Source of the DNA: an uncultured Gammaproteobacteria bacterium
Lineage (GTDB): Bacteria; Pseudomonadota; Gammaproteobacteria; Pseudomonadales; JAHEGP01
Direction of reading: 5' to 3'
NCBI GenBank assembly: GCA_963722805.1
Contig: CAVROQ010000012.1
Coordinates: 280,047-344,046, forward strand
DNA: 64,000 nucleotides
This document shows, piece by piece, positions 35,089 through 57,505 of the stretch. The notes beneath the pieces were generated by a model. It had not been told where the DNA came from, did not search any database, and worked only from the letters and a program-made list of their open reading frames with translations. The translations under genes and the position numbers were made by a program. Positions within the stretch are counted from its first letter, which is position 1. Each line of letters starts with the position of its first letter.

Positions 35089-35095
35089 ACCGGGC

Positions 35096-36027: not shown

Positions 36028-37464
36028 ATGCCAGACAGCGCCGTTTCAAAAACTCATCTCGTTTGGTTTCGCCAGGACCTGCGGCTCATTGACAACACCG
36101 CACTGGCGCGGGCCTGCGAAGACCCCAATGCCCGGGTGCTGGCATTGTTTGTCGCGACCCCACAGCAGTGGCAACTCCATGACATGGCCCCCATTCGCCA
36201 GCGTTTTATCTTACGCAACGTTGATCACCTCGCGCGCTCACTGCAAGCCATCAATATTCCGCTGCTATACCTCGAGATAGAGGACTACATCGGCGTACCT
36301 GAACTTATTCAGCGCCTGGTTGAGCAGCACGGGATTGATGCCATCTACGCGAATCGTGAATATGGATGGAACGAAAAACAGCGAGACAAAGCCCTATCGG
36401 AGCGATTGGCACCGTTAAACTGCGAATTTCATCAATTCCACGACCAGTCCATGTTGCCCCCTGGGCTCGCAACCCAGACCGGCAAGCCCTACACCGTATA
36501 CACACCCTTCAAAAAGCGTTGGTTGGAAACATGGCGTGCGAGCCGGCCGCACACTCTACCTGCCCCAACAATACGTAAGCAAACTGCCAACGCTACCGGG
36601 GATGCTATTCCTGTGCCGGCGGAGGAGCCGGTGGACAAGCACTGGCCTGCGGGGGAGGGCGCTGCATGGCGACGTCTGGAGAGTTTCTGCGACGAGCGTA
36701 TTGAAGATTACAAGCGCGATCGCGATATGCCCCGCTTAAACGGAACCAGTGCGATTTCTCCGTGGTTGGCAGCCGGCGTCCTTTCAGCACGCAGCTGCCT
36801 TGAGGTGGCAAGCAATGCTAACCGTGGTCGACTCAGTGGCGGCCAGGAAGGTATCGACTGCTGGATCAGTGAACTGATTTGGCGTGATTTTTACATTCAT
36901 ATTCTCGACAGCTTTCCTGTTGTCAGCAAAAATCGGGCATTCAAACGCGAGACTGAAACGATCGCCTGGCGCGATAGCAAAGATGACTTTGCGGCCTGGT
37001 GCAGCGGACGCACCGGCATCCCGATCGTCGATGCGGCCATGCGTCAGCTGCTGCAAACAGGCTGGATGCACAATCGACTCAGAATGGTTGTCGCTATGTT
37101 CTTATCTAAACAACTGTTGCTTGACTGGCGCCTGGGTGAGCGCTTTTTTATGCAGCATCTGATTGATGGACACCTCGCATCCAACAACGGTGGATGGCAG
37201 TGGGCAGCATCCACCGGCACCGACGCTGTACCGTATTTTCGGATATTCAATCCGGTGACCCAGAGCCAACGATTCGATGCCAATGGCGTTTTCATTCGAC
37301 AATATGTCCCAGAGTTGGCCGCTGTTGAAGGCAAGGATATTCACCTGCCGCTGCCCATGATTCGCCAGGCCCAGGCGCCGGATTATCCTGCCCCTATCGT
37401 CGACCTCAAATATGGCCGACAACGCGCGTTGGACGCGTTTGCCGCCGCAAAAAAAAGCGGGTGA
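36028..37464 (+). CDS. phrB: Deoxyribodipyrimidine photolyase
   Basis: LVWFRQDLRLIDNTAL at the N-terminus. FAD-binding C-terminal domain with TGIPIVDAAMRQL..TGWMHNRLRM and NNGGWQWAASTGTDA. Confidence 0.9.
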   Translation: MPDSAVSKTHLVWFRQDLRLIDNTALARACEDPNARVLALFVATPQQWQLHDMAPIRQRFILRNVDHLARSLQAINIPLLYLEIEDYIGVPELIQRLVEQHGIDAIYANREYGWNEKQRDKALSERLAPLNCEFHQFHDQSMLPPGLATQTGKPYTVYTPFKKRWLETWRASRPHTLPAPTIRKQTANATGDAIPVPAEEPVDKHWPAGEGAAWRRLESFCDERIEDYKRDRDMPRLNGTSAISPWLAAGVLSARSCLEVASNANRGRLSGGQEGIDCWISELIWRDFYIHILDSFPVVSKNRAFKRETETIAWRDSKDDFAAWCSGRTGIPIVDAAMRQLLQTGWMHNRLRMVVAMFLSKQLLLDWRLGERFFMQHLIDGHLASNNGGWQWAASTGTDAVPYFRIFNPVTQSQRFDANGVFIRQYVPELAAVEGKDIHLPLPMIRQAQAPDYPAPIVDLKYGRQRALDAFAAAKKSG

Positions 37465-40081: not shown

Positions 40082-40480
40082 TTACTCAACGCCTCTGCCC
40101 GCTTGTTCGATATGCTGGGACATGACCGTCGCGAGACCGTTGAAGCTGCCGAAGTAGGGCAGTAAGCTCAGGGAGATGTCCGGATACTGCCCGCCTATCG
40201 ATTCAATCAAGGCCGGAATATCCCTGCTCACATGTCGGCCGCAATTAAAAAACAGCGGATACACATCAATGGAGTCTACCGGGCATATGGACAGACACTC
40301 AACAACCGCATTCAACGATGGCGCTGCGGCCTCAAGAAATGCCGCTTCGATATGGGCATAGCCGAGCGTGCCGCCATCCAGTTTCGCCAATACCTGCTTG
40401 AATTCCTCGTTGGCAGCTCTACTTCTGCTGCCGTGGGCGATCACTATTAACGCGCGGCTCGACGCCGGATCAGGCGGCAT
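40082..40480 (-). CDS. CbiX/SirB-type chelatase domain protein
   Basis: ALIVIAHGSRSRAANEEF and a length of about 130 aa. The start at ATG 40480 overlaps the upstream gene end by 11 nt. Confidence 0.6.
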   Translation of the reverse strand: MPPDPASSRALIVIAHGSRSRAANEEFKQVLAKLDGGTLGYAHIEAAFLEAAAPSLNAVVECLSICPVDSIDVYPLFFNCGRHVSRDIPALIESIGGQYPDISLSLLPYFGSFNGLATVMSQHIEQAGRGVE

Positions 40481-41924
40481 GGCTTTCGGGTAAATGCGTA
40501 TCTGTTCCGGCCTTATCGCCTGAGACAAAGGGTGCAGCAACCGTCTCCAGATAATGTTCCAACCTGCTTCGCTCCGCTGCGCTTTCGCGAGTCGATCTCA
40601 CAAAGTGAGTGGCGTGGGGCTCACGGTCCAAAAATAATTTCCCACTAGCCAGGCCTGCCTCCCGGGCAGCTGCCAACCAGACGATAGTGTCCGCGCCTTG
40701 TTCCGGCGTCCTGAGTATCCGCTTGGTTATCTTGTGAAAGGCAGGCAGGGCTGTTTCTACCCCCGGGGTATCAGCCCAGCCCGGGTGCATGGCGTTGCAG
40801 CTGATGCCGAATTGCTGCCAGTCACGGGCCCATTGCTCGGTCTTCACCATCAAGCCTCGCTTGGCTCGCGCATAGGCGACGCTGCCGGAATATTGGCCAT
40901 CCTCACTTTGCAATTGATCCACGACGAGCTTCTGCGAATACATCCCCCCGGATACGACATTGACAACACGGGCTTCGCCACTGCGCTGCAGCAGCGGCAA
41001 TACGCCCTCTGTAAGCAAGTAGGGGCCCAGCAACAACAGCGCAAAACTTTTTTCGAGCCCTTCAGCGGTCTCCTGTCGGGGGTTGAATAGTGCCCCTGCG
41101 TTATTGATCAATACGTCAATGGGCCGGTCCTCAGCGATCAGGCGCTCCACCAGTTGCTGCACCTGCTCCATTACAGACATGTCGGCCAATTGCAGCGCGA
41201 TGTCATCATTACCGGTCTCGGCGATCAGCTGTTTGACCAGACTTGCGCCACGGCTTTCGTCACGCGCCACCAGAGTCAAGCCGGCACCCATTTTGGCCAG
41301 TTCCCTGGCGGCCGCCAAACCGATGCCGGAGGTCGCCCCGGTAAGTACAATGTGCTTGTCGTCCATGCTGGCTGACATCGGGTGCCAATGCCTTTTACTT
41401 TTCAGGTATCCGAACTTGCTGAAGCGGGCAAGTCCGGGCAACACCAGCTTGTCTGCCAACAGCGCAGAAGTACTGATCGTTGGAGCTTCGAAATTATCCT
41501 CAAGCGCCTGCTGCAGGCCACCCACTGAGGTTGCGCCCATGCGCACCATTCCCGGCTTGATTATTGCCTCGAAGGGACGCAGCGCTGGGGTAAATTTGAA
41601 CTCAGCGGTGTAATCGAGCATCGCAGACCGGTCATCACCCGTCACCATGATGGTGTCGGTCACAGTAAACATCGGGCATGTGCCCTCGAGCACAACCTGA
41701 TGGTCAGGCTCCCACTTTAGCACCTTGTAACGCAGGGTGATTTTGCCGATTGGCATGGCGCACACCACGTCGTATTCAGTGCCCACGCCGGTGGGAGCAG
41801 ACCCTATCTTGTCCGAACTCAGCGCGGTGGCATCCCACTGCGCGCAGTTGGAAAATTCGCAGGCATAGGCAAATACTTCTTTCACAGGACGCTCTACTGA
41901 GCACTTTTCATTGAGCAAAATCAT
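40470..41924 (-). CDS. SRPBCC (START/polyketide-cyclase-like) domain fused to an SDR oxidoreductase
   Basis: The N-terminal 150 aa or so resemble SRPBCC ligand-binding domains (VERPVKEVFAYACEFSNCAQWD). The C-terminal half has VLTGATSGIGLAAAREL, NNAG and YARAK. Confidence 0.7.
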   Translation of the reverse strand: MILLNEKCSVERPVKEVFAYACEFSNCAQWDATALSSDKIGSAPTGVGTEYDVVCAMPIGKITLRYKVLKWEPDHQVVLEGTCPMFTVTDTIMVTGDDRSAMLDYTAEFKFTPALRPFEAIIKPGMVRMGATSVGGLQQALEDNFEAPTISTSALLADKLVLPGLARFSKFGYLKSKRHWHPMSASMDDKHIVLTGATSGIGLAAARELAKMGAGLTLVARDESRGASLVKQLIAETGNDDIALQLADMSVMEQVQQLVERLIAEDRPIDVLINNAGALFNPRQETAEGLEKSFALLLLGPYLLTEGVLPLLQRSGEARVVNVVSGGMYSQKLVVDQLQSEDGQYSGSVAYARAKRGLMVKTEQWARDWQQFGISCNAMHPGWADTPGVETALPAFHKITKRILRTPEQGADTIVWLAAAREAGLASGKLFLDREPHATHFVRSTRESAAERSRLEHYLETVAAPFVSGDKAGTDTHLPESHAA

Positions 41925-42159
41925 GTTTCGTAACACTCCTCCAGGCAACGGACGCCGATCAATAGCCGATCCGCTAAGTCATTTGATATCACTTATACCT
42001 ACGCAGAGAGGGGTTTGGACCACAGGCTTCGGCTCGGTTTCGTTTGAACCTCAGTACGAAAATATAACCGAGGGTGTTTATCAGTAGGCGCCGTCTACCG
42101 GCCGATTTGCCAGCCGGGGAAGAACCGTCAGATTTCTGGATGAGTACTGGCGAGGACGC

Positions 42160-42242: not shown

Positions 42243-44285
42243 CTAAAATCGCTTGCGCAGCCCGGTAATCAGGAAACCCTGTTGCACCTGGTAGCTTTCG
42301 GACTGAAAGTCCTGCAGCAGCCATTCGTACCCCAACTCGAACTCCAGCAAAAAGGATGGGGTGAAATACCAGTCCAGGCTCACCACAGGCCGCAAGGTAT
42401 AGGCCTGCTGGTCGAAATCTTTGAGTGAGCGCTGGGTTGCCAGCATACGTAGGGTCAGGTTTAGATTTTGGTTAAAACTGATTCGCTCATCGACAAATAG
42501 ACTCGTGGCATCGGCACTATCGCCGGTTGTATACCGTATGCCGCCGCTGAGGTAGTCATTCGCCATTATGGCGTCGGCAATAACCAATTGCAGGCCAAAG
42601 GTTGTGTTCGCATCGGAATCTGGCGCATCAAACAGAGGATCGTATACCGGTAAATCACTCATCTCATAGCGGTAGATTTCGCCAATGAAGCTCAGCGTCT
42701 CAGTGATTTCCTGGTTGACCAACACCGATGCATAGCGGCTGATAGCCGTTTTGTCCAATGCAGCATCGTAGACGTCAGTGCCATCATCTAGGCCTTCCAC
42801 CAGCTGATCAAGGTCGATATCAAATTCGCCGATCAAGGCGTTGCTTGCCGAGAGAAAGGGACTTCGCTGGTAGCCCAACGATACCGCAATATTGGTAGCT
42901 GCTCCCAGATTCCAGCTACCATTGAACATAAGGTTGTTAGGCTCATTGAATTTGATATCGTAATCAACAATAAAAAGGTAATGGGAAAAATCATTGAAAT
43001 AGGAAACTTCTCCGCCTAGCGCGCGCCGCTCGGTAAACCCCTCATAAGTCTGCTCAAGAGCGTAAAGGTTTAGTCGCCACGCCGGGTTATCGAAGCGAAT
43101 CTCGCTACCCAGGCCGATTACTCTCCTGCCACTGTTGGAGAAATCCCGGCTGGAATTCGCCAAAGAGCCGGCGGACACGCTAACGGAAAATTTGTCGGTG
43201 ATGGGGTAACTGGCAATCAGTCCATCGAGATAGCCGTATACTCCATTATCATTGCTGCGCTGGCGACCTAAAGCCAGCCGCGCGCGACTAGGCTCATGGG
43301 TAACATCCAGATAGAGATTGTTAATGCGGGTATCCGATTCGCTGCGATAGGAATAGTCTGCCAGGTAACCGCCGCTAATTCGACTGCGCACCAGGTAATT
43401 GCCCGCACGACTCCGAAGGTACAGATCGAGGTTCGCCTGCAGTGATGAGATAGAGGTTTCGGCGCTTTGTTGCTCAACCTTGCGTCGCAAGCCTCGATAC
43501 ATTAGTGAAGTACTGCCGTAAATCGCCGTGTCATTGGTGCCTTTTTTGGCCTTTTTTCGCAGGGCTTTAGGCTCTGACGGGGCGGTATCCAAGGCCACCA
43601 GTCGCTGCTTTACACGTGTCTGTCCAGCATTGTCAGCGTACAGTGCCAGCCATTGTTGGTAAATTCGCATGGCACCCTCTCGATCGTTCTGTTTTTCCAG
43701 GCAGACGCCATAAAGTTCCAGCGCCCACGCCGCCTGCTCTTGGCTCGGTACTTTGCTTAGCAACAGATAGATGGTGCTAGCCTGTGAAAAGTCCTTTTGG
43801 CTGTACAAGCTCGCAGCACGCTTGAGTTGCAGATCTACTTGTCGACGGCCACCGAGGGCAACCACCACATTCTCTCGCTCGGAAGCTGCGGCTACCGGTG
43901 GCAGCTGCAGGGCATCGTCAATAGCCTGATTTTCATGCATCGCCACTTGCTGCACCATCAGGTCAGGGTAATTCACTCGCATTGCATTGGCGATTTGTCG
44001 CGCTTCTGCTGCGCTCGAAAAAAATCCGGCTTTCAGGCGCCAACTGGAACCCTTATCTCCGGTTTCAGCATACACCTGCAGCGGCTGTAAACGGTAAAGC
44101 TCAGTACGTATTTGTATCCTACTAACTGTGTAGTCTCCCAACTGAATCACGTATTGGCCAGCCTCTCCAGGAGTGTCGCCAAAGGCCATTGAGCTGAAAG
44201 CTACTGCCCAAAAACAGACAACAATACTGTTTACCAATCGCTCCAAAATTTGAATTCGGCCGGGCATATCAAAAATCATTGTCAC
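42243..44285 (-). CDS. Outer-membrane protein: signal peptide, SPOR-like domain, TPR-like region and C-terminal beta-barrel
   Basis: SPOR-like YVIQLG...RLKAGFFSSAAEARQIANAM. A helical repeat region (QAAWALELYGVCLEKQNDREGAMRIYQQWLALY). About 430 aa of alternating beta-strand-like sequence ending GLRKRF (terminal Phe). Confidence 0.6.
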   Translation of the reverse strand: MTMIFDMPGRIQILERLVNSIVVCFWAVAFSSMAFGDTPGEAGQYVIQLGDYTVSRIQIRTELYRLQPLQVYAETGDKGSSWRLKAGFFSSAAEARQIANAMRVNYPDLMVQQVAMHENQAIDDALQLPPVAAASERENVVVALGGRRQVDLQLKRAASLYSQKDFSQASTIYLLLSKVPSQEQAAWALELYGVCLEKQNDREGAMRIYQQWLALYADNAGQTRVKQRLVALDTAPSEPKALRKKAKKGTNDTAIYGSTSLMYRGLRRKVEQQSAETSISSLQANLDLYLRSRAGNYLVRSRISGGYLADYSYRSESDTRINNLYLDVTHEPSRARLALGRQRSNDNGVYGYLDGLIASYPITDKFSVSVSAGSLANSSRDFSNSGRRVIGLGSEIRFDNPAWRLNLYALEQTYEGFTERRALGGEVSYFNDFSHYLFIVDYDIKFNEPNNLMFNGSWNLGAATNIAVSLGYQRSPFLSASNALIGEFDIDLDQLVEGLDDGTDVYDAALDKTAISRYASVLVNQEITETLSFIGEIYRYEMSDLPVYDPLFDAPDSDANTTFGLQLVIADAIMANDYLSGGIRYTTGDSADATSLFVDERISFNQNLNLTLRMLATQRSLKDFDQQAYTLRPVVSLDWYFTPSFLLEFELGYEWLLQDFQSESYQVQQGFLITGLRKRF

Positions 44286-45870
44286 GCACCCGGTGTTCGC
44301 CTGAATTGGAATCTCTGATGGTCGTTTGGGTGCTGTCGGTGTATTCGTGGCAGGCTCCGGAACAGTCCCTTAGCTCAGACACCGTGTAATTTGTCCTGGG
44401 ATTCGAATACTTGCGATGCTCGCCGGCCTCGTAATCTCCGGCATGACAGCCAGCACAATTTGGTTGATAGGCCGCAAATGGCCAGCTGACTAGCTGCGCA
44501 TTGTTTCTGTGGCAGTCTGTGCAGTCCAGATTTCTATTATGATCACCCGGATAATTTGGAGAGCTATGTGAAAAGGTTTGCGGCGACCAGGCAATATTCG
44601 AATGACAACGATTGCAGTCCAGGCTGGTCTGGAAATGGCCATTCGGCTTACCCTGAGCGGTAGAACCGTTGTGACAACTCTGGCAATTACCGGTGATGCC
44701 GCTGTGATCAAAGCTTGCCGGTGTCCACGCCACCGGGGTATGGCAGGCCACACAGTCCTGGTTGGTGGCAATATGAGTCGCCGGCTTGCCTTCGGACTGG
44801 GTGCCGTTATGGCAGCTCTGGCAGTTGCCGGTAATCCCGGCATGACTGAAGTTGGCGGGTGTCCACGCCACCGGGGTATGACAGGCCACACAGTCCTGGT
44901 TGGTGGCGATATGAGTCGCGGGTTTACCTTCGGACTGAGCACCGTTATGACAGCTCTGGCAGTTGCCGGTAATCCCGGCATGGCTGAAGTTGGCGGGTGT
45001 CCACGCCACCGGGGTATGACAGGCCACACAGTCCTGGTTGGTGGCGATATGAGTCGCGGGTTTACCTTCGGACTGAGCACCGTTATGACAGCTCTGGCAG
45101 TTGCCGGTAATCCCGGCATGGCTGAAGTTGGCGGGTGTCCAAGCCACCGGAGTGTGGCAGGCCACACAGTCCTGGTTGGTGGCAATATGGGTCGCCGGCT
45201 TGCCTTCGGACTGAGCACCGTTATGGCAGCTCTGGCAGTTGCCGGTAATCCCGGCATGGCTGAAGTTGGCGGGTGTCCACGCCACCGGGGTATGACAGGC
45301 CACACAGTCCTGGTTGGTGGCGATATGAGTCGCGGGTTTACCTTCGGACTGAGCACCGTTATGGCAGCTCCGGCAGTTGCCGGTAATCCCGGCATGGCTG
45401 AAGTTGGCGGGAGTCCAGGCTATCGCTGAATGACAGCTGCCGCACGGTTGGTTAGAAACAATATGGTCAGCTGACTTGCCTTCGGCAAGGGTACCGTTAT
45501 GGCAAACAAGGCAATTTTGCGACAATTGCGAATGGTCTACCTGGGCAACCTCTTGCCAGGCAAAGGTGTTGTGACAGCTGTTACAGTTCGCATTGGTAGG
45601 GATATGGTCTTGTGGCTTAAAACTTGTCTCTAGAAGGCCGTTGCGGCTGTGACAAGTTTGGCACTCTCTGGGTGTACCCTGAAAGACTCCACGCGCATGG
45701 CAGCTTTCACACTGCAGATCACGATGACTCCCAAGTAGTTCAAAACCGGTGGAAAAGTGGTCGAATCGGGCCTTTTCGGCGGCTAAGGCGTTACTACCCA
45801 GGCCGTTCAACAACAGGGGCATGCACAGCCAAAGGCACACGTTGAAGGTATATCGACTCAATTTTGCCAT
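44269..45870 (-). CDS. Multihaem c-type cytochrome, 19 CxxCH plus one CxxxCH (paired-CxxCH dihaem modules)
   Basis: I counted 19 CxxCH motifs directly, plus CSGACH. A signal peptide is present. There are seven 46-aa dihaem units, five of them near-identical. The start overlaps the upstream stop by 13 nt. Confidence 0.9.
   Translation of the reverse strand: MAKLSRYTFNVCLWLCMPLLLNGLGSNALAAEKARFDHFSTGFELLGSHRDLQCESCHARGVFQGTPRECQTCHSRNGLLETSFKPQDHIPTNANCNSCHNTFAWQEVAQVDHSQLSQNCLVCHNGTLAEGKSADHIVSNQPCGSCHSAIAWTPANFSHAGITGNCRSCHNGAQSEGKPATHIATNQDCVACHTPVAWTPANFSHAGITGNCQSCHNGAQSEGKPATHIATNQDCVACHTPVAWTPANFSHAGITGNCQSCHNGAQSEGKPATHIATNQDCVACHTPVAWTPANFSHAGITGNCQSCHNGAQSEGKPATHIATNQDCVACHTPVAWTPANFSHAGITGNCQSCHNGTQSEGKPATHIATNQDCVACHTPVAWTPASFDHSGITGNCQSCHNGSTAQGKPNGHFQTSLDCNRCHSNIAWSPQTFSHSSPNYPGDHNRNLDCTDCHRNNAQLVSWPFAAYQPNCAGCHAGDYEAGEHRKYSNPRTNYTVSELRDCSGACHEYTDSTQTTIRDSNSGEHRVRDNDF
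44721..45410. repeat. Five near-identical in-frame 138-bp tandem repeats inside the cytochrome gene
   Basis: The landmark gtgtcc(a/c)(c/a)gccaccgg recurs at 44721, 44859, 44997, 45135 and 45273, and in degenerate form at 45411. That is exactly 138 nt apart. Each unit encodes TPVAWTPANFSHAGITGNCQSCHNGAQSEGKPATHIATNQDCVACH. Confidence 0.9.
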
Positions 45871-47450
45871 TGGACTTCCTTGAAGGATTCACTGTTGTGA
45901 CAGCGGCCACAGTTATCACCGAATCTTCCACCATGTCGATCCTGGGGCGCATGGCAGGCGGAACAGCGGCCCGACACATCGTCGGCATTGTTACCTTTGT
46001 GGCAACTGGCGCAGGCAAGACCTTCGTGGGATCCTTGCAGCTTGAATTCGGTTTCGTGATTGTGGTCGAAGGACCAGATTGCCCACGCGTTGGGGTTATG
46101 ACAGCTGGCACATTGGGTTCCCAACGAGGCACGATGAATATCATCGGTTTTATGGCAAACCACGCAATCGCTTTTGGTTTCGTTAAACACGAAACCCTGG
46201 TGACAGCTTTGACAAGGGGCGACGGCATGCATCCCTTCTAGCGGAAAAACCGTCAATTCATGATCGAAACCCAATGTTTTTCCCCAGCCTGCTGGCTGGT
46301 GACAACTGCTGCAATCTTCCAGCCTGCTCGATTGGTGGACATCATCAGCGCCATGGCAGGATTGACATTCGCCATCCAGCTTCTCATCCAATGAGCCCCT
46401 GTGGCATTGCAGGCAGTTAACGTCTTTATGCTTGCCAGCTAGCGGCCAATTGGTTTCAACTGCGTGATCGAACCGTGTATCGCTCCAACGCCGGGTATTG
46501 TGGCAACTCTGGCATTGCCCACCATGCCTGCCCGCGTGAACGTCACTGCCGAGATGACAGGCCGTGCATCGGCTAGAAAGGGTCTCGGCGTCAAATCCGT
46601 TAAAATGACAAGCATTGCAAGACTGATTGCGATGGACGCCGGTAAGTTTAAAATCAGTTTCCCGATCGTGATCAAAATCCAATTTTTCCCATTTGGATTG
46701 CGAATGGCACTGATCACAGCTCTGGCCATATTTACCGAGGTGAACATCCTTTACCTGATGACAACTAGCGCAGTCGGTTGTTTCAAACTGGTACTGCTCA
46801 CCCGCATGGCAACTGTTGCACTGCAGCTTCTGGTGCCGGCCGAGCAACGGAAATTCCGTTGCGTCATGGTCAAACTCCTTACGCCTTTTCCAACTCTGGC
46901 TCTGATGGCAAGTGCTACATTCTTCCCCGAGTGTCTGCTGATGTGGATCATCCTTTTTATGGCAGGCGTAACATTCGGACTCGGTTTCCCGGTACAAGGT
47001 ATTTTTCTTATGACAGGCTGTGCACCGGGTATCCGCATGTTTGCCCTGTAAACGGAAATCAGTGTAATCGTGGTCAAAGGTAGCTTTATCCAAAGGGGCG
47101 ATATTGAAATCTCGCCCCTTATGGTCCTGGTGACAACTCTTGCAATTATTGCTAGACGCTGAGGGTGACAAGCCATGAAACCCGGCCTTATCTTTACGGT
47201 CCTTCGCTACTTCCTCATGGCAACCCAGGCAAAGCGTATCCTGGGCAGATTTGTCAAATCGGCTATGGCAGGAGTCACACTGCTTCTCCTCGTCGGCATG
47301 TACCTTACTCACGGGGCCCGGCATAAGAATCAGCGATTTGAGATCGTTCACACTAGCCGGCGCTGAAGATGAAAATAGCGATCCGCAAAGGGATAAAAAA
47401 ATGCCGAGAGTGACACCATATCGCACTGCCTTAATACCAATGCACAACAA
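45858..47450 (-). CDS. Multihaem c-type cytochrome, 21 CxxCH (seven c7-type trihaem modules)
   Basis: I counted 21 CxxCH motifs. The module pattern C..CH - C..CH - W..(F)DH....F.L.G.H....C..CH recurs seven times, as in the cytochrome c7 / c3 family. An N-terminal signal peptide is present. Confidence 0.9.
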   Translation of the reverse strand: MLCIGIKAVRYGVTLGIFLSLCGSLFSSSAPASVNDLKSLILMPGPVSKVHADEEKQCDSCHSRFDKSAQDTLCLGCHEEVAKDRKDKAGFHGLSPSASSNNCKSCHQDHKGRDFNIAPLDKATFDHDYTDFRLQGKHADTRCTACHKKNTLYRETESECYACHKKDDPHQQTLGEECSTCHQSQSWKRRKEFDHDATEFPLLGRHQKLQCNSCHAGEQYQFETTDCASCHQVKDVHLGKYGQSCDQCHSQSKWEKLDFDHDRETDFKLTGVHRNQSCNACHFNGFDAETLSSRCTACHLGSDVHAGRHGGQCQSCHNTRRWSDTRFDHAVETNWPLAGKHKDVNCLQCHRGSLDEKLDGECQSCHGADDVHQSSRLEDCSSCHQPAGWGKTLGFDHELTVFPLEGMHAVAPCQSCHQGFVFNETKSDCVVCHKTDDIHRASLGTQCASCHNPNAWAIWSFDHNHETEFKLQGSHEGLACASCHKGNNADDVSGRCSACHAPQDRHGGRFGDNCGRCHNSESFKEVQWQN

Positions 47451-48309
47451 CGATATGGACGACTACCGTGCAAATCATCACGATAAATACAGGAATGTGA
47501 ACCACGTGCCAAAACCCGAACAAGCGTTCGAATAACCGCAGGCCGGCTAATCGTTCCAGCAAGGTAGCCAGCGATCGATAGTGTTCCCGTAGCGCTTGTT
47601 CCTGGCTGCCGATTTTAGCCCTGCGTAAAAAGAGGTCCTGTGATAAGGCTCGGTTTTTCATTTGCCGCAGCCAGCGCCGCTGAATCAGCAACTGCCTTAG
47701 TGATACCGCCTGCTGTTGCCTGTCAATGATATCCGCCGCACCCCGATAGATCTCGCGCATATGCTGCCACTTTTCTTCACCCAAAGAATGATATTCGAGT
47801 TGTTGGAAAAATCCGTCCAAATCTGTTCTGAGTTGCTGCAACTCAACTTGTTGCCCATACAATCCGTAATGAAACTTGCCGTAGAAATAGCGACCGATAA
47901 AGCCACTACCGGCGACCAGCAGCATGGCTATCAGGGCCACTGAACTATTGGTGGAACCTAAACTAAAGTTGCTGTGGAGGAGAATGCAGGCAGGACCCAA
48001 TACACCTAAAAGCATATGCAGGCGAAACCAGCTCTTTACCTTCAGCCAGCCATTCATACGGCGCCAACGTTTACGTAGAGGGTAGAGCAAAAGCAACAGC
48101 ATCAAACTGCCACCGGTTATGCCCAGGGCATATCCCCAACCCGATTCTGCGTCGAGGTAACGATGATCTCGGAGCAACCAAGCCCAAACCAGGACAAGTG
48201 CGACGAAGAAAGTAAAGATTGGGAAAGCCGCCAGGGACCGCGTTGATTTGTAGCGATGTGCCTGACCTTTGTGACGTGTTTCAACTGAGAGTGTTTTCAT
48301 AGTTGGCAC
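47431..48309 (-). CDS. His-rich integral membrane protein (possible haem-b / ferric-reductase-like module)
   Basis: Four N-terminal helices (YPLRKRWRRMNGWLKVKSWFRLHMLLGVLGPACILLH...), a helical cytoplasmic segment of about 100 aa and a C-terminal helix WHVVHIPVFIVMICTVVVHIVVVH. The gene overlaps the downstream cytochrome gene by 20 nt. Confidence 0.5.
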   Translation of the reverse strand: MPTMKTLSVETRHKGQAHRYKSTRSLAAFPIFTFFVALVLVWAWLLRDHRYLDAESGWGYALGITGGSLMLLLLLYPLRKRWRRMNGWLKVKSWFRLHMLLGVLGPACILLHSNFSLGSTNSSVALIAMLLVAGSGFIGRYFYGKFHYGLYGQQVELQQLRTDLDGFFQQLEYHSLGEEKWQHMREIYRGAADIIDRQQQAVSLRQLLIQRRWLRQMKNRALSQDLFLRRAKIGSQEQALREHYRSLATLLERLAGLRLFERLFGFWHVVHIPVFIVMICTVVVHIVVVHWY

Positions 48310-48467
48310 AGGAATTATGGGTTTACTATCATTCTAGAAGTCATTTGGCAATCAGCAATAATTCACAGTATAGTAGAGCTTATGGGAATATAATCCCAAA
48401 TAAGAGACGATAATTTGAACAAAGGGGCGAATAAGCAACCAAACGAATCACAAAAAGGAATATTGCT

Positions 48468-49772
48468 GTGGACCAACTGGCAGCTATCGGCGCGGTATAT
48501 ATCGCTCCAGCTTTGGGTATCATTGCCCTCTACTGGATCAAACAGCAGAAAAAGTCCAAATCTGCTCTTAAGGTCTATCGGGAAGCCGCAGAGGCGGGCT
48601 TGCTTGAACCCGCATCACTGCATCCCGTCATTGACACGGCACTCTGCGTTGGCTGCGCTACTTGCGTAGGCGCCTGCCCCGAAAAGGACGTTCTGGGCAT
48701 CATCAAGAACAAGGCCCAGCTGATTTCTCCTTCCTCGTGTATTGGTCACGGCGCCTGTAAAACCGCTTGTCCTACCCAGGCAATTGAACTCGTATTTGGC
48801 ACTGCCACGCGTGGTGTCGATATACCGTTAGTGGGCGAGGATTATCAAACCAATGTCCCCGGCATTTATATTGCCGGCGAACTGGGAGGTATGGGCCTGA
48901 TTCGCAATGCAATAGAGCAGGGGCATCAAGCTGTCGCCGCGATTGCCAATAATAAGCGCAGAGGGGGAGCAGACAGTCTCGACCTGGTTATTGTGGGTGC
49001 AGGCCCAGCGGGCATTAGCGCGGCCATGGCGGCGAGAGCTGCCAACTTGAATTTCACAGTGCTGGAGCAGGATTCTGTAGGTGGAACTATTGCGCATTAT
49101 CCACGAGGAAAACTGGTGATGACCCAGCCGGCGCATTTGCCGCTAGTGGGAGAGTTTCAATTCCGCGAGACCACCAAGGAAAGCCTCATGGCTTTTTGGT
49201 CGGAGGCGATAGCAAAAACCGGGCTTGATATCTCAACTGGCGAGCGGGTCGACAGCATCGAGCGTTGTGGCACGGGTTTCAAAATAACCGCCAGCAAGAC
49301 CTACCATGCCAGCAACGTTCTTTTAACCATTGGTCGGCGGGGAAGTCCGAGAAAACTGGGCGTGAGTGGGGAAGAGCAAAGTAAGGTTGTTTATCGGTTG
49401 GTTGAACCCGAGCAATATCGCGGTAAAAAGGTAATGGTGGTCGGTGGCGGTGATAGTGCGCTGGAAGCCGCTATAAGCCTGTCAGAAGAAGAGGGTACCA
49501 AAGTAACACTGAGCTACCGTGGGTCGGCATTTAATAGAGCCAAGGCAAAAAACCGCGAGCGAGTCGAAGAAGCGCAAAAATGTGGCCAATTACGAGTCGA
49601 ATTGGGCTCTGTACCGCTACAAATAACTTCGGATATGGTGCGAATCAAAACCGCTAGCGGTGAAGAAGACATTCACAATGACAGCATTATCGTTTGTGCC
49701 GGGGGCATTCTACCCACGGCCTTTCTGGAAAAGACGGGCATCGAAGTAAAAGCCCACTTTGGAGCCTTATGA
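48468..49772 (+). CDS. Membrane-anchored NAD(P)/FAD-dependent oxidoreductase with 2x[4Fe-4S] ferredoxin domain
   Basis: An N-terminal helix, then CVGCATCVGACP and CIGHGACKTACP, then thioredoxin-reductase-like VIVGAGPAGISAA and VVGGGDSALEAA dinucleotide sites. The start is GTG. Confidence 0.8.
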   Translation: MDQLAAIGAVYIAPALGIIALYWIKQQKKSKSALKVYREAAEAGLLEPASLHPVIDTALCVGCATCVGACPEKDVLGIIKNKAQLISPSSCIGHGACKTACPTQAIELVFGTATRGVDIPLVGEDYQTNVPGIYIAGELGGMGLIRNAIEQGHQAVAAIANNKRRGGADSLDLVIVGAGPAGISAAMAARAANLNFTVLEQDSVGGTIAHYPRGKLVMTQPAHLPLVGEFQFRETTKESLMAFWSEAIAKTGLDISTGERVDSIERCGTGFKITASKTYHASNVLLTIGRRGSPRKLGVSGEEQSKVVYRLVEPEQYRGKKVMVVGGGDSALEAAISLSEEEGTKVTLSYRGSAFNRAKAKNRERVEEAQKCGQLRVELGSVPLQITSDMVRIKTASGEEDIHNDSIIVCAGGILPTAFLEKTGIEVKAHFGAL

Positions 49773-51754
49773 ATCGTATTTCTCTCAAATTTTTACCGCT
49801 GGTCGTTGCCTGTGTAGCAGGGCAATCCATGGCCGCTGATCTGTCACCTGCCTACAAGGCTATGCGGCTTGGTGACTTTAGTCATGCGGCGAATATTTTT
49901 GAGCGCGAAGCAAATAGTGGATCCAGCGAAGCGCAGTTCCAGCTCGGAAAGCTTTACCTGGCGGGCCGAGGACTGGGTAAAAACGATGCGTTGGCCCAGC
50001 AATGGTTAAGCAAGGCAGCAAACAGCGGTGACGCCCGGGCCCAGTACACCCTGGGTTTGCTGCTATTGGAGAACGACGAGAGGTCCCAGGCGATACACTG
50101 GTTGACCTTGGCACAACAACAAGACCATCGACGCGCAAGCGAAAAGCTCGAAAGCTTGCACGCCAGCGTTGCCGACAATAACCCGGCTATGGTGGCCGGA
50201 AATCTGGAGGAAATATGGTTCAAGGCTGCCACGAAAGGCGATAGTAAGAGACTCAAGAAACTGCTGAAGCAGGGCGCTGACCTGCAGCTAACTGACAAGT
50301 ACCAGCGCAATGCCTTGCATTATTTGGTCGCATGCGATGGTGCTCACGGCGCCGGCCTGATGATCGAGGCCGGGATTGATGTCAACGCGCAAGACCGCTA
50401 CGGCGAAACCGCACTGATGCTGGCTGTAAAACGCGATCAGGCGACTATTGTGCGCTCGCTACTTTTGAATGGGGCAGATTCCTCGGTCACCACAAATTCT
50501 GGCGATACGCTGTTACATCTCGCCCTGACAAACGAGAGTTTTCAAGCACTGAGTCTGCTACTGGAGTTTAATTCGCCACTCAATGGTGTTAATTCCATGG
50601 GGCAGTCTCCACTTGACCTGGCAACACTTATTCAAGACAAGAGGGCTGAAAAGCTGCTGCGTGCGGCTGGAGCAGAGCATGGGCCCAAATGGCAAACCAG
50701 AGGGGCCAACAGTAGTGTATCGATAGCGAATTACCTTGATAAAGAAACGAGCACTAGGCAGGAGCCCTGGCTTTTGGCTCGCCAGGCGGTATTGCAGGAT
50801 GAAGCCGGCCTGCTGTCAGCCTTGCTTGGAAAGCATGGCTCGAACCTGGCAAAACAGCAGGACGCCCAACAACGCAGTTTACTTAACTATGCCATAGGCG
50901 CTTCTGCCATGGAGGTGATCCCGGTACTCCTAAATGCGGGCGCCTCTCTCGAACAGGCTGACGCCGATGGAAAAACCGCAATCATGCTGGCAGTGTCGCG
51001 TGACAAACCTGTTTTGGCCAGTCGTCTCCTCCAGCTTGGCGCCAATGCATCAGCCAGGGATAAACTCGGTCGTGACGCCCTGCATCTGGCACTTGAAGAA
51101 GGTCACACTGGTACCGCCAGAGAGTTGCTTGCCTATATCGTCAAAGTCAATCAACGCACCAGCGACGGAAGCAGCTATCTTATGCTTGCTATAAGAGGTA
51201 AAAGCACAAGTCTTGTAGACCCGCTCTTGAAAAGAGGAGTGAACGTCGGCCTGAAGGATAACAAGGGGCGAACAGCGTTATGGTATGCCGCTAGCCATTG
51301 TGATGTCCAGGCTATCGACAGCATGCTACCTTTGGATAGAAATATAGACCGGGCCGATCAACAGGGTTATACCCCCATGCATGTTGCAGCCAGCAGCGGA
51401 TGCCAGCCCGGAGTTCAGAGATTGTTGGCAGCTGGTGCCAATTTCGATGCACTAACTGAGGAAGAAAACACCCCCCTGATGCTCGCAATACGAGGCAAAC
51501 AAACCAGCGTGGCTCTGGAACTTCTCAGCAGAGGTGTCGACGTGAAGCGGCATAATTCACAGGGCGACACTGCGCTGCTCTGGGCAGTGGGTATTGAATC
51601 CCCTGCATTGGTATCCCAGGTCCTGGAACGTGGTGGCGACCCTTATCGCCGCAATCATCTGGGTGACTCAGCTCTGGCCCTGGCCAAGAAACACCACCCA
51701 TCTCTGGTGCCATTGATTAAGGAAAAGGGGGGATTTCGCTTTCCTCGCCTCTAA
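49769..51754 (+). CDS. Secreted Sel1-repeat plus ankyrin-repeat protein
   Basis: Signal peptide MNRISLKFLPLVVACVAGQSMA. Sel1-like EAQFQLGKLYLAGRGLGKNDALAQQWLSKAANSGDARAQYTLG. More than 10 ankyrin units (G.TALMLAV...IVRSLLLNGAD). ATG 49769 overlaps the upstream TGA as ATGA. Confidence 0.8.
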   Translation: MNRISLKFLPLVVACVAGQSMAADLSPAYKAMRLGDFSHAANIFEREANSGSSEAQFQLGKLYLAGRGLGKNDALAQQWLSKAANSGDARAQYTLGLLLLENDERSQAIHWLTLAQQQDHRRASEKLESLHASVADNNPAMVAGNLEEIWFKAATKGDSKRLKKLLKQGADLQLTDKYQRNALHYLVACDGAHGAGLMIEAGIDVNAQDRYGETALMLAVKRDQATIVRSLLLNGADSSVTTNSGDTLLHLALTNESFQALSLLLEFNSPLNGVNSMGQSPLDLATLIQDKRAEKLLRAAGAEHGPKWQTRGANSSVSIANYLDKETSTRQEPWLLARQAVLQDEAGLLSALLGKHGSNLAKQQDAQQRSLLNYAIGASAMEVIPVLLNAGASLEQADADGKTAIMLAVSRDKPVLASRLLQLGANASARDKLGRDALHLALEEGHTGTARELLAYIVKVNQRTSDGSSYLMLAIRGKSTSLVDPLLKRGVNVGLKDNKGRTALWYAASHCDVQAIDSMLPLDRNIDRADQQGYTPMHVAASSGCQPGVQRLLAAGANFDALTEEENTPLMLAIRGKQTSVALELLSRGVDVKRHNSQGDTALLWAVGIESPALVSQVLERGGDPYRRNHLGDSALALAKKHHPSLVPLIKEKGGFRFPRL

Positions 51755-51907: not shown

Positions 51908-53380
51908 TCAGCCATCGATCTCCACTTTTCCTCCGCTGAGCGTGGAGTCCCCGTCCCACTGCGCGTCTTCAATTTTTACCGTCGCACCCGGAACCAGGTT
52001 TGGGAAAAAATCAGCGGGCAACTCGCTGACAGTGGCAGTGTCGATGGTCAAACCTAATATCTGGAAAAACGGCGGCGAGATATTTGATGCCGGCCCGCGC
52101 AAGTCGATAGAACGATTATTGATGCTTCCGTCAACTTCTATATCGGTGGCGATTACATTACCCGTAATATCGATATAAGCTTCGACATCTGCCTGTATAT
52201 TGCCGTTGCCCTCGCTAATAACCCCATCATCATCATCAGTCTGGGCATTTGCAAACACCCTTATTCCCATAATTTCCATGGACTCGCCAATGTCGATATC
52301 AGCAGTCAGCACAGGCGCCAGAATATTAACTCGCGATTCTTCAACCTCTATTTCCCGAGCGCGTAATATACCGTTAAGCGTATCGAAATCGCCCTCAACT
52401 TCCAGCTTCGCTCCCACCACGATATCGGCAGGCGTTCCGCCTTCAAATTCAGTAGCGGAATCAATAATTACCGTCTGGCCATCGACCATAAATTCGCCGG
52501 TCAGATTCACCTGAGTGACAAAACCTTCAATTTCCGCCTTAATCAAGCTCGTGGCGGGGCTGTCAGGAACCTGCAAACCCTCCAACTGGCATTCAACTCG
52601 AGTTACCGGGAGAAGATCACCGTTGCTGAAGTCGGGGGCTGGAGGTGATTTCACTTCCACCAGAGCACCATTAACCAGACCTCCGCTACAATCCTCAGGG
52701 ACGATACCGTTGAGGACGATTTGCTGGGAACCGACCTTAAAGCCTTGATTAGGCACCACCTCGGTTGCGCGGCCATTGATAACCCATACCGGCAAGCCTG
52801 AGGGTTTGTAAGCCAGGCGTGAGGCGCGAATTACGCCATCCACGTCACGGTAACCGGCCACCTCAACAATACTGCCTATCACAAGGTTCCCGGCGAGTCC
52901 TCCGGGTATATCAGACAGCACCGTGCCACCATCTATCACTACGGTCTGGCCAAGCACGCTAAGGGGATTACCGGTCGTTACCGGGCCGATAACCTGGTGA
53001 AATGCAGAAACATTGACCGCTGTGCCTGAATCAAATGTCTCACTCACATCGTCGGCAACATCGTAATTAACAACCATGCCAATGGCCAGGTCTTCAGACT
53101 GCACACTCTCACCGTCTATGGTGATGTTGGTGTCCGGTGTAAGCGCGAACACGCGGGTATCATTGATAACGATGCTTGAGAAGCGGGTGATAGTACCCAG
53201 GCCAGTGCCGCCGATGCCTCCATCGGCGATGACGCTATCGAGGCCACCATCGTCGGAACCTCCACCCCCTCCCGAGCAGGCGGCCAATAGTAAGCTGCAA
53301 ATGAACAGGATCACACTGGGGAAGTTCGTCAAAAATCTATGGCTATTCACAATTCCTCCTCGTGCCGGTGTTGCAGACAC
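51908..53380 (-). CDS. Repetitive beta-rich lipoprotein (DUF5666-like repeats; family from memory, low certainty)
   Basis: Lipobox LLLAAC followed by a Gly-rich linker. Units ending (V/L)EV(E/K)G...A..(V/I)E recur repeatedly. An alternative GTG start at 53350 overlaps the upstream TGA as GTGA. Confidence 0.55.
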   Translation of the reverse strand: MSATPARGGIVNSHRFLTNFPSVILFICSLLLAACSGGGGGSDDGGLDSVIADGGIGGTGLGTITRFSSIVINDTRVFALTPDTNITIDGESVQSEDLAIGMVVNYDVADDVSETFDSGTAVNVSAFHQVIGPVTTGNPLSVLGQTVVIDGGTVLSDIPGGLAGNLVIGSIVEVAGYRDVDGVIRASRLAYKPSGLPVWVINGRATEVVPNQGFKVGSQQIVLNGIVPEDCSGGLVNGALVEVKSPPAPDFSNGDLLPVTRVECQLEGLQVPDSPATSLIKAEIEGFVTQVNLTGEFMVDGQTVIIDSATEFEGGTPADIVVGAKLEVEGDFDTLNGILRAREIEVEESRVNILAPVLTADIDIGESMEIMGIRVFANAQTDDDDGVISEGNGNIQADVEAYIDITGNVIATDIEVDGSINNRSIDLRGPASNISPPFFQILGLTIDTATVSELPADFFPNLVPGATVKIEDAQWDGDSTLSGGKVEIDG

Positions 53381-54180
53381 TCTTCAAAAAAGTATATGCC
53401 AACGCCTGCACGGTAGCGGCCGTCACCCTCCAGCCCGGGATTTTGATCTCGGTCATGTTGCGCCAGCCAGGCGTCATACTGTTTAAGTAGTTGCAGCGAC
53501 TTTCGATCAGATAAACGTTTAAACTCGCGCACGGCATCCTCTGAAAGGTTGTCGTAAGCGACTTTCAACTGAAAATGAGAGCCCGGTATGTCTTCGTCAA
53601 GGTTGTAGTCGATTGTATCGATCAAGTCCGATACATCGCTTCCCAGAATGGCCAGTTTTTCCTCGGAGCCGGTCGCTGGAACATAGGCCGGCGCCAGCAG
53701 TCGAACCGCTTCCTGCGTCAATTCCGCAGACCCGACGCGAATGAGTTCATCCAGAACTGCCTTTACCGGCATGTCCCCACTATATCGGGACACCAGCGCG
53801 CTGAAACTGCCAACTTTTCCTTCCACCGGCAGAGTCGCCGGTTCACCATTTTCATCACAGAAAGCAGTATCTCGCAACCAGCCACTAATCACCCGGGCAG
53901 CACGATTGTAACTGACGTCGAGGGCGGCAGTGTCTAAAGGGGCGAGCCTCTGAATTCGCAACACCTCCTTGCGATTCAAACCAGTGATGACAGCAATTCT
54001 GGAATTCGTCTGCTTCCTGCCCGGCAAACGAAAACTTTCGTTTGCGACTTCCACATAATTTTGTTTTAGTATTTCAGAGACCGCCTGGAACGGGATACCA
54101 TGCCGCAGCAGCAGTCTCACCAAGGGTTTTAGCAACTTGGCGACGGCGGCAAGAATAGTGGCTTGAATCTGTGTATTCAT
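53347..54180 (-). CDS. Hypothetical cytoplasmic protein (possibly DUF6502-like; low certainty)
   Basis: Intact 277-aa ORF with no hydrophobic helices, translationally coupled to the downstream lipoprotein gene. The family name is from memory only. Confidence 0.45.
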   Translation of the reverse strand: MNTQIQATILAAVAKLLKPLVRLLLRHGIPFQAVSEILKQNYVEVANESFRLPGRKQTNSRIAVITGLNRKEVLRIQRLAPLDTAALDVSYNRAARVISGWLRDTAFCDENGEPATLPVEGKVGSFSALVSRYSGDMPVKAVLDELIRVGSAELTQEAVRLLAPAYVPATGSEEKLAILGSDVSDLIDTIDYNLDEDIPGSHFQLKVAYDNLSEDAVREFKRLSDRKSLQLLKQYDAWLAQHDRDQNPGLEGDGRYRAGVGIYFFEECLQHRHEEEL

Positions 54181-54287: not shown

Positions 54288-55477
<1,190 letters not shown>

Positions 55478-55478
<1 letters not shown>

Positions 55479-57485: not shown

Positions 57486-57505
57486 AACAACAGGAGCGAT
57501 GATCC

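Follow-up and report, generated by a model that had tools for sequence, protein, structure and literature searches.

Porin–cytochrome clusters of the PCC3 type were defined from genome sequences by He et al. in 2017 (PMC5566968) as sets of genes encoding a porin, one multihaem cytochrome outside the cell and one in the periplasm and an inner-membrane protein (IMP). In that description, the outer cytochrome is repeat-rich and carries a median of 34 haems, the periplasmic cytochrome carries a median of 21, and the IMP, with ~300 amino acids (aa), has five transmembrane (TM) helices bearing a WX3HX13H motif on TM3 and again on TM5 and an SGXXG motif on TM4. Published examples are Slit_0867-0870 and Slit_1446-1449 of Sideroxydans lithotrophicus and the clusters of Leptothrix cholodnii SP-6 and of the Riftia endosymbiont. 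The periplasmic cytochrome of the Riftia symbiont has 21 haems in seven 66-aa repeats (26 aa per haem), its Gallionellaceae counterparts have 21, 24 or 27 haems, and 22 transmembrane regions have been predicted in the L. cholodnii porin. Here, we describe a locus of this type in a 64,000-nucleotide stretch of DNA (the window; positions 280,047 to 344,046 of CAVROQ010000012.1, a metagenome contig of 467 kb) from an uncultured gammaproteobacterium, in which four genes (g1-g4) form a PCC3-type cluster by their sequence features and are accompanied by two divergent neighbours (g5 and g6). On balance, these six genes probably serve to bring electrons from NAD(P)H in the cytoplasm to the surface of the cell. 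Their positions in the window, together with that of the region between the two operons, are as follows:

47431..48309, minus strand: g1, the IMP, 292 aa, from its open reading frame (ORF)
45858..47450, minus strand: g2, periplasmic 21-haem cytochrome, 530 aa (ORF)
44269..45870, minus strand: g3, outer ("extracellular"-type) multihaem cytochrome, 533 aa (ORF)
42243..44285, minus strand: g4, outer-membrane protein, 680 aa (ORF)
48310..48467, no strand: divergent intergenic region between g1 and g5, 158 bp, with the presumed promoters of both operons
48468..49772, plus strand: g5, membrane-anchored cytoplasmic Fe-S flavoprotein, 434 aa (ORF, Pfam and motifs)
49769..51754, plus strand: g6, periplasmic Sel1 and ankyrin-repeat protein, ~661 aa (Pfam and start codon)

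A first-pass annotation of this DNA had recognised g1-g4, and all four minus-strand ORFs were recovered where it had placed them, their stop and start regions overlapping at every junction. In public gene calls, g4 begins at an ATG two codons further in, which gives 678 aa, and g1 begins three codons further in, which gives 289 aa; the overlaps persist with these starts. By every feature of PMC5566968 that can be examined in a sequence, g1-g4 is a PCC3-type cluster, the comparison being with the published description of the type. Porin, outer cytochrome, periplasmic cytochrome and IMP are encoded contiguously on one strand (g4, g3, g2 and g1); g1 has the expected length of ~300 aa, five helices and both the WX3HX13H and SGXXG motifs; g2 is a periplasmic cytochrome of 21 haems with ~25 aa per haem in ~67-aa repeats, close to the published ~26 and ~66 aa; g3 is a repeat-rich outer cytochrome that is enriched in Thr, Ser, Ala and Gly and differs in haem number between homologues; and g4 is an outer-membrane barrel for which 22 strands are predicted, like the 22 transmembrane regions of the L. 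cholodnii porin. The host of the window differs from the hosts in which such clusters were described, being no Fe(II) oxidiser but an uncultured relative of Halieaceae or Spongiibacteraceae. This identity supports the earlier proposal of a trans-envelope porin–cytochrome module, whilst overturning the accompanying view that its parts differ from known systems and represent a new design: PCC3, which the first-pass annotation listed without matching it to the locus, was described in 2017 with the same gene order and features.

The other half of that proposal, that the module is not of the Mtr type, holds good, as no family-level match to MtrA, MtrC or MtrB was obtained. Against the DmsE/MtrA family TIGR03508, g3 scores 89.8 bits (cut-off 192) and g2 gives no match, whilst against the OmcA/MtrC family TIGR03507 g3 reaches 37.4 bits (cut-off 209). 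The MtrB/PioB family of Pfam has no match on g4 and is not among the 25 families listed for 49 of its homologues, MtrB is absent from the top 50 fold matches of g4, and sequence searches of solved structures with g2 and g3 returned no Mtr protein. MtrCAB, MtoAB and PioAB resemble the present module in combining a barrel-insulated periplasmic multihaem cytochrome with an outer cytochrome and in their bis-His c-type haems. However, they carry 10 and 10 haems rather than 21 and 20, the MtrB barrel has 26 strands rather than the 22 of g4, and electrons enter MtrCAB through the quinol dehydrogenase CymA, whereas the input here would be a putative di-haem-b IMP and a flavoprotein. A 2026 paper on a Methylobacter porin–cytochrome system was considered and set aside, the system being of the Mto type.

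The flavoprotein is absent from the two main PCC3 papers. These describe four genes with a link to the quinone pool, whereas the window and most of the related loci add a flavoprotein and usually a Sel1/ankyrin protein as well. These loci came from a genome scan in which an IMP alignment was run against one genome per species (~185,600 genomes). Relatives were found in 481 of them, many from marine sediments and vents, and the best 80 loci were fetched. They belong to Gammaproteobacteria, Alphaproteobacteria (Caulobacter, Emcibacter, Marinicaulis, Hyphomicrobiaceae) and a few other phyla, with Halieaceae, Woeseia, Colwellia, Thalassotalea, Caulobacter, Chromatiaceae and Thiotrichaceae among their titles; the close relatives of both barrel and IMP are in Halieaceae and their neighbours (Halioglobus, Mangrovimicrobium and metagenome-assembled genomes of Spongiibacteraceae). 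None of these 80 best loci of the 481 is from a named PCC3 host, and no plasmid-borne copy of the module was found. A bridging search with the IMP of one of the loci (L072) led to no PCC3 organism of the published set, its matches being unnamed proteins or proteins of metagenome-assembled genomes. Gene order is constant, running from the IMP through a cytochrome of mostly 21 haems and a second of 9-52 haems to the barrel.

In this set, g5 is present in 71 of the 80 loci and g6 in 61. Wherever g5 is missing, either the contig or the flanking DNA that was fetched stops within the cluster or next to it, and the same is true of most loci without g4 or g6. The linkage of g5 and g6 to the module is found in three placements, divergent upstream as in the window, after the barrel, and co-directional upstream. 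Remote barrel homologues that were found through the barrel alone are likewise adjoined by multihaem cytochromes, a g5-type flavoprotein and an ankyrin protein. In terms of gene content, then, g1-g6 is a six-gene unit to which g5 and g6 belong; the first-pass annotation had the four-gene part right and missed the two divergent members. The two main PCC3 papers make no mention of ankyrin, flavoprotein, FAD, TPR, SPOR or peptidoglycan, and ankyrin is absent from the literature found on multihaem proteins, porins and electron transfer. All six genes are present in the cultured Mangrovimicrobium sediminis SAOS 164, and a second cultured host, Thalassotalea sp. ND16A, has the module as far as the fetched DNA extends, g5 lying beyond the fetched flank.

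The best-conserved protein of the unit is g5, with a median identity of 55% to the window protein. It begins with an N-out TM anchor followed by the basic stretch KQQKKSK, carries two Fe-S cluster motifs, C60xxCxxCxxxCP and C91xxH94xxC97xxxC101P, and has a flavin domain of thioredoxin-reductase-like type with GAGPAG (FAD) and GGGDSA (NAD(P)H) motifs. This flavin domain is without the redox-active CxxC, the sole CxxC of the protein being in the Fe-S domain. Pfam returns Pyr_redox_3 (9e-43) and Fer4 matches, and the nearest solved relatives are YpdA/Bdr and the thioredoxin-reductase-like ferredoxin-NADP reductases (7A76, 7A7B, 2ZBW and 3AB1). A score of 147 against the NCBIfam YpdA model, for which the cut-off is 340, places g5 in a distinct subfamily. 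In 67 cluster-linked homologues, 113 positions are at least 97% conserved, including seven Cys (C60, C66, C70, C91, C97 and C101 among them) as well as His94, so that the second cluster motif reads CxxHxxCxxxCP. The second cluster may be a 3Cys-1His [4Fe-4S] cluster. In hydrogenases, clusters with this ligand set sit at the electron exit surface.

The likely ATG start of g6 overlaps the stop codon of g5 (ATGA). Its product has a signal peptide (MNRISLKFLPLVVACVAGQSMA, with AD beginning the mature protein) and matches Ank_2 (2.9e-59) and Sel1 in Pfam, and in 49 of 50 g6 homologues the N-terminus likewise carries a hydrophobic signal. The topologies deduced for g1, g5 and g6 are consistent with the positive-inside rule and with the signal peptides.

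The link between g5 and the IMP is closer than neighbourhood. When 1.84 billion representative proteins were searched exhaustively with g5 in HMMER, 858 matches were obtained at E <= 1e-30, and the best 150 of these contain 39 fusions of the two proteins, 35 in the order g5–IMP and four in the order IMP–g5. Thirteen fusions were inspected; all keep CxGHxxCxxxCP, and 12 have both WX3HX13H motifs, the remaining one (P0334, 595 aa) ending after the first. In two g5–IMP fusions that were inspected, the anchor and the flavoprotein are followed by TM1 of the IMP. In one IMP–g5 fusion (P0318), the linker between the two parts consists of a g5-type anchor and then a basic cluster, and one fusion of this order is encoded in an operon directly after 23- and 13-haem cytochromes and a secreted 597-aa protein. 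That the two are fused in either order, and in many clusters which each differ by more than 50% in sequence, argues strongly for g5 and g1 acting as a single unit, and the pair looks like a transmembrane dehydrogenase of the NADPH oxidase (NOX) kind.

Five further matches in which g5 appears joined to cytochromes of 20-34 haems (P0327, P0360, P0368, P0375 and P0383) were not used as evidence. The linkers of P0360 and P0375 resemble a signal peptide, and these proteins are either membrane-passing fusions or read-through gene calls. Other long architectures of the g5 family (P0299, P0305 and P0321, of 1006-1377 aa, and P0378 and P0397) in some cases continue from g5 into 600-900 aa with TPR_12 or without a Pfam match, and in others have FHA domains and a cytochrome-like region before g5.

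Five TM helices are predicted in g1, both by hydropathy and in an AlphaFold2 model (pLDDT 84.2). The hydrophobic helices and the two His-rich stretches that the earlier reading had noted are present in it. The motifs are W94-x3-H98-x13-H112 on TM3, S135GFIG on TM4 and W267-x3-H271-x13-H285 on TM5, and all are invariant in alignments of 21 and of 52 sequences. A helical cytoplasmic insert of ~110 aa separates TM4 from TM5. The positive-inside rule orients g1 with its N-terminus in the cytoplasm, as there are five Lys/Arg residues at the N-terminus and seven in loop 2, and two and none in the periplasmic loops; with five helices, TM5 then ends outside. TM3 and TM5 consequently both run from inside to outside, which puts H98 and H271 close to the cytoplasm, and H112 and H285 close to the periplasm. 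With two His pairs ~13 residues apart on parallel TM helices, coupled to the NAD(P)H flavoprotein g5, g1 is on its sequence a candidate transmembrane carrier of two b-type haems. Long g1 ORFs in five loci (L017, L030, L052, L076 and L080) were examined as possible fusions and rejected, their N-terminal extensions being low-complexity artefacts of ORF calling.

The analogy between the IMP and the di-haem arrangement of ferric reductases and NOX was first drawn by He et al. (PMC5566968). As in the NOX and ferric reductase (FRE) proteins, two bis-His HX13H sites on TM3 and TM5 are stacked across the membrane and paired with an NAD(P)H flavoprotein, and the order of those proteins, TM domain first and dehydrogenase second, is that of the four IMP–g5 fusions. 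The differences are that g1 is without detectable sequence or fold homology to them, that it has five TM helices plus the g5 anchor rather than six, that their dehydrogenase is of the ferredoxin-NADP-reductase type whereas g5 is thioredoxin-reductase-like with two Fe-S clusters, and that their acceptor is O2 or Fe(III) whereas here it would be a multihaem cytochrome. In its way of working, the IMP would thus resemble a ferric-reductase domain, although it cannot be recognised as belonging to that family. A further parallel is offered by PCC4, the IMPs of which have the same motif pattern as those of PCC3 but are not homologous to them in sequence. In PCC4 subgroup II (PMC5566968), an Fe-S protein gene adjoins that of the IMP, and the two were at one time annotated as a fusion, a counterpart of the g5–g1 link; PCC4 differs in lacking an outer cytochrome and in its periplasmic cytochromes, of which there are three, all smaller, with 4, 5 and 10 haems.

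These features can be assembled into a route for electrons. At the membrane, g5 would oxidise NAD(P)H at its FAD and pass the electrons on through two [4Fe-4S] clusters, the second with the invariant His as a ligand. The IMP would then take them across the inner membrane on two stacked bis-His b-haems, one held by H98/H271 on the cytoplasmic side and the other by H112/H285 on the periplasmic side, so that g5 and g1 would together resemble an NADPH oxidase or ferric reductase in two parts, supplying a haem wire rather than O2 and bypassing the quinone pool. Seven c7-type trihaem modules in g2 would bridge the periplasm, and g3, with its 20 haems and a length set by a two-haem repeat, would thread into or dock on the g4 barrel and expose haems outside. 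The SPOR and TPR parts of g4 would tie the barrel to peptidoglycan and probably hold a cytochrome, and g6 may be an assembly or scaffold factor.

We infer that flow along this route is outward, as the passage of electrons from NAD(P)H to the outside would be easy whereas their delivery to NAD(P)+ from Fe(II), against the membrane potential, would not. The PCC3 model of He et al. has the opposite sense: an extracellular donor such as Fe(II), a mineral or a cathode would be oxidised at g3 and its electrons taken inwards through g2 to the IMP, which would reduce the quinone pool. On this reading, g5 and g6 would be accessory or regulatory proteins. It is in keeping with this model that PCC3 was first found in Fe(II) oxidisers, with hosts in Fe-rich habitats (PMC5566968), and that the IMP of one PCC3 copy of Sideroxydans CL21 is up-regulated when iron is oxidised; multihaem wires are moreover reversible in principle, as the comparison of Mtr with Mto shows. 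However, Sideroxydans ES-1 lowers the expression of both its PCC3 clusters on Fe(II) (PMC8788666), and they are low or undetected in the proteome table of a magnetite-oxidation study, and no known Fe(II)-oxidising genus appears in the titles of the 80 loci (the best 80 of the 481). The regulation in ES-1 and the titles of these loci both favour export. Uptake also fits poorly with an IMP tied by linkage and by fusion to an NAD(P)H-type flavoprotein, with the thermodynamic implausibility, as we judge it, of reducing NAD(P)+ from Fe(II) against the membrane potential, and with the fact that no quinone site is evident. Uptake through this module is in our estimation unlikely.

Several points weigh against outward transfer from NAD(P)H by the six genes as set out above. 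The function of PCC3 components has never been tested in the literature, and the assignment of g1-g4 to PCC3 is itself to a description. Nothing in Pfam or NCBIfam accommodates g1, the best match being a sub-threshold DUF4405 (E = 0.024); its profile finds zero sequence relatives in the Protein Data Bank, its model (pLDDT 84.2) has no fold relative there at E < 0.9 in Foldseek, and neither sequence nor fold shows family-level similarity to the ferric-reductase/NOX transmembrane domain (PF01794). That g1 holds haem b, that g5 is specific for NAD(P)H and that g3 is exposed on the surface is what we infer, and g3, which would have to reach the surface, carries an ordinary signal peptide without a lipobox. 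In some loci of Alphaproteobacteria and of Woeseia, g5 is present without an ankyrin gene. Finally, export of electrons from NAD(P)H would dissipate membrane potential, and the benefit to the cell might be redox balancing.

In g2 there are exactly 21 CxxCH motifs, 44 His and three Met residues, and in g3 there are 19 CxxCH motifs plus one CSGACH (CxxxCH), with 41 His for 20 haems, in agreement with the haem counts first given for this locus. Amongst 20,000 composition-preserving shuffles of each protein, the mean motif count was 0.30 (maximum 4) for g2 and 0.24 (maximum 6) for g3. Judged by composition, the supply of His would be just enough for bis-His ligation of every haem (44 for 21 in g2, 41 for 20 in g3). 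Behind its signal peptide, g2 consists of seven units of ~67 aa, each a c7-type trihaem module, at 25.2 aa per haem and with haem spacings of 16-17, 18 and 33 residues, seven times over. Its family matches are Pfam Cytochrome_C7 (1.4e-31) and TIGR04257 (nanowire_3heme), and its homologues have mostly 21 haems, with 18 or 24 in some of the 80 loci, mainly alphaproteobacterial ones.

The only solved sequence relative of g2 is 3OV0 (E = 7e-6), which is GSU1996, the dodecahaem "nanowire" cytochrome of Geobacter sulfurreducens, in which four c7-type modules form a chain ~12 nm long. Although the proteins are alike in being chains of c7-type trihaem modules (TIGR04257), the similarity is weak, GSU1996 has four modules and 12 haems where g2 has seven and 21, and g2 belongs to a porin–cytochrome operon. 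On the scale of GSU1996, the seven modules of g2 would reach ~20 nm, enough for the periplasm; the periplasmic cytochrome of PCC3 has likewise been considered long enough for the periplasm by Hoover et al.

Pfam matches on g3 are to c7, c3 and Paired_CXXCH, 35.6% of its residues are Thr, Ser, Ala or Gly, and a sequence search of solved structures with it found zero relatives. Its core is a tandem array:

44720..45417, minus strand: tandem array inside g3, 138-bp unit (46 aa, 2 haems), 5.1 copies at 94% identity, Tandem Repeats Finder score 1242

The array is the part of the outer cytochrome that varies in length, its copy number differing among the relatives of g3. This core has a haem every 23 aa and is flanked by a conserved N-terminal module (aa 46-140) and a conserved C-terminal module (aa 416-533), which are present in 66-67 of 67 homologues. 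The C-terminal module, with a conserved C[ST]G[AS]CH site and a terminal EHRxxDxxF/W, stands at the very end of the protein in 66 of the 67. Full-length homologues have 9 to 52 haems, and the combination of fixed ends with a variable core indicates that the outer wire is tuned in length through repeats being gained and lost. The longest outer cytochrome among the 80 loci is that of the cultured isolate Thalassotalea sp. ND16A (L027; 1301 aa, 52 haem motifs), in which the barrel gene is on the opposite strand. Two ORFs inside the array region of the window, 44490-45395 on the minus strand (301 aa) and 44578-45429 on the plus strand (283 aa), were rejected as genes, both arising artefactually from the 138-bp repeat array; antisense ORF families of a similar kind are also a recurrent feature of the related loci.

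The barrel protein g4 was modelled with AlphaFold2 from 31 homologues (pLDDT 83.4). A hydrophobic signal segment, which forms a signal helix in the model, is followed by these domains:

aa 43-113 of g4, nt 43947-44159, minus strand: SPOR-like domain (Pfam and AlphaFold2 model)
aa 147-234, nt 43584-43847, minus strand: TPR domain, five TPR-like helices with a weak YbgF-TPR match
aa 253-679, nt 42249-43529, minus strand: 22-strand beta-barrel (AlphaFold2 model)
aa 476-513, minus strand: conserved helical insert after strand 13 (alignment and model)

The model bears out the build that had been read from the sequence, namely signal, SPOR-like segment, TPR-like segment and barrel, with Phe as the last residue (...GLRKRF). 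The segment 43-108 scores 19.9 bits against Pfam SPOR (PF05036; cut-off 21) and folds in the model, over residues 45-113, as beta-alpha-beta-beta-alpha-beta, the order expected of SPOR. Among 50 g4 homologues, at least 26 have TPR, 18 have SPOR (E <= 0.01, best 1.6e-7) and five have LysM, whilst many close relatives are of ~575 aa and do not have the first 100 aa. The exchange of one peptidoglycan-binding domain for another, SPOR or LysM, speaks for peptidoglycan anchoring as the selected function. The recurrence of TPR together with SPOR or LysM on these barrels is absent from the two main PCC3 papers, in which the barrel is described without mention of such domains. The most conserved stretch of g4 is the insert at aa 476-513, containing SPFLSASNALIG, in which P476, N482, A483 and G486 are at least 90% conserved in the 50 homologues. 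In the model, strand parity would place this insert on the outer side, making it a candidate contact for g3.

It had been suggested at the outset that the idea of a conduit would fail if the barrel were too narrow for a haem protein. By the standard relation of barrel geometry, a backbone of 22 strands has a radius of ~21 Å, and this is the size class of the TonB-dependent receptors, which enclose a plug of ~150 aa. The predicted barrel would thus not be obviously too narrow for a slim haem chain. A different reading keeps the whole system within the periplasm, where the cytochromes would serve as an electron store or as a reductase of soluble substrates and the barrel as a channel or a peptidoglycan anchor. 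The plain Sec signal peptides of g2 and g3, without a lipobox, would suit such a system, as would the lack of dedicated secretion genes in the module; generic porins and ushers are the fold matches of g4, and a capacitor role has been proposed in the literature for the haems of PCC3. Yet the barrel gene directly follows that of the outer cytochrome, with overlapping or adjacent reading frames, the conserved ends and freely variable core of g3 suit a wire that reaches out better than an enzyme, and 22 strands are, as we see it, far more than a channel for small solutes needs. A purely periplasmic role is accordingly improbable in our view, more so than electron uptake.

The first-pass annotation had itself offered another alternative, that the barrel with its TPR and SPOR parts secretes or anchors a cytochrome filament, or is an unrelated exopolysaccharide exporter. 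The succession of TPR and barrel does resemble BcsC, PgaA and AlgK-AlgE, and BcsC stands at rank 20 of the fold matches of g4. However, at a TM score of ~0.27 this match is weak and no better than those to ordinary porins; the fold matches, to generic porins, ushers and BcsC, reach only ~0.3, and a specific structural relative of the barrel was sought amongst them and not found. The company kept by the barrel also speaks against an exporter. No polysaccharide gene was found beside the barrel homologues in the loci examined, including the most remote ones, picked via the barrel, and in all of them what adjoins is cytochromes, the flavoprotein and cytochrome-maturation genes; the barrel beside a polysaccharide synthase that marks the BcsC, PgaA and AlgK-AlgE systems was thus not seen in these loci, and the possibility raised earlier that such homologues would accompany polysaccharide genes can be set aside. 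Neither a polysaccharide synthase nor a filament-type cytochrome gene recurs in the 80 loci or beside the remote barrel homologues, and g3 is a long covalent repeat wire with a genetically set length and no sequence relative among solved structures. We regard secretion or anchoring of a filament, and polysaccharide export, as very improbable.

Around the module, the window encodes unrelated functions, including SDR, CbiX-type chelatase, DUF5666, formaldehyde detoxification and photolyase proteins. Directly downstream of g4, at 40082-41948 on the minus strand, the gene of a CbiX-type chelatase (152 aa) overlaps the end of that of an SRPBCC and SDR fusion protein (492 aa). Both were considered as members of the module and rejected, the SDR being without a counterpart in the 80 related loci and no CbiX-like family recurring in them. 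On the other side, at 51908-54180 on the minus strand, two further genes overlap. One encodes a DUF6502 protein (277 aa), the other a 490-aa protein that has two DUF5666 domains together with a Gly/Asp-rich linker and an N-terminus like that of a lipoprotein (…LLAAC). The regions 54324-58549 and 30276-37464 hold housekeeping and stress genes unrelated to the module, among them those for a glutathione-dependent formaldehyde dehydrogenase with S-formylglutathione hydrolase, an ArsM-like methyltransferase, a photolyase and a wax-ester/triacylglycerol synthase. A patch at 6001-10532 has a GC content of 0.41-0.47 against ~0.55 elsewhere, contains a sulfatase gene (6349-8214) and a 645-aa ORF without a Pfam match (8595-10532), and may have been acquired horizontally.

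In the related loci, some other neighbours recur: an 8-haem cytochrome of ~745-820 aa lies upstream of the module in three (L006, L009 and L066), a CcmH/CycH-like gene is beside it in 20, and CcmF in 13; L012 at 5146-6201 and L020 at 7812-9821 provide further examples of such neighbours. Together they suggest a dedicated capacity for haem attachment. With regard to regulatory signals in the window, two sigma-70-like matches face g5 (48303-48332 and 48345-48374) and are only suggestive, since the promoter and terminator scan gave counts no higher than those of shuffled sequences; an Rfam scan of the window gave zero matches.

Since 2017, PCC3 has figured among the candidate iron oxidases. What is new here is the six-gene unit, the evidence from fusions for an input through an NAD(P)H flavoprotein, and the recurrence of peptidoglycan-binding and TPR modules on the barrel; g1 would in addition represent a new class of transmembrane haem carrier. 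If electrons do enter through an NAD(P)H flavoprotein, as linkage and fusions indicate, both the direction in which they are expected to move and the physiology of PCC3 change, and PCC3 would be one of few routes that bypass the quinone pool; the cultured hosts Mangrovimicrobium sediminis SAOS 164 and Thalassotalea sp. ND16A make the question directly testable. Extending the proposal from this locus to the family, it is conceivable, as a tentative generalisation that we hold to be possible but on the doubtful side, that PCC3 is no quinone-linked device for iron oxidation but a widespread quinone-independent NAD(P)H:extracellular-acceptor oxidoreductase, with a NOX-like input (the Fe-S flavoprotein and a new family of di-haem-b membrane proteins) and a wire of ~40 haems pinned to peptidoglycan and passing through a 22-strand barrel. 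If so, aerobic or facultative marine heterotrophs and sulfur oxidisers could use it to dump reducing power on minerals, humic substances, partner cells or O2.

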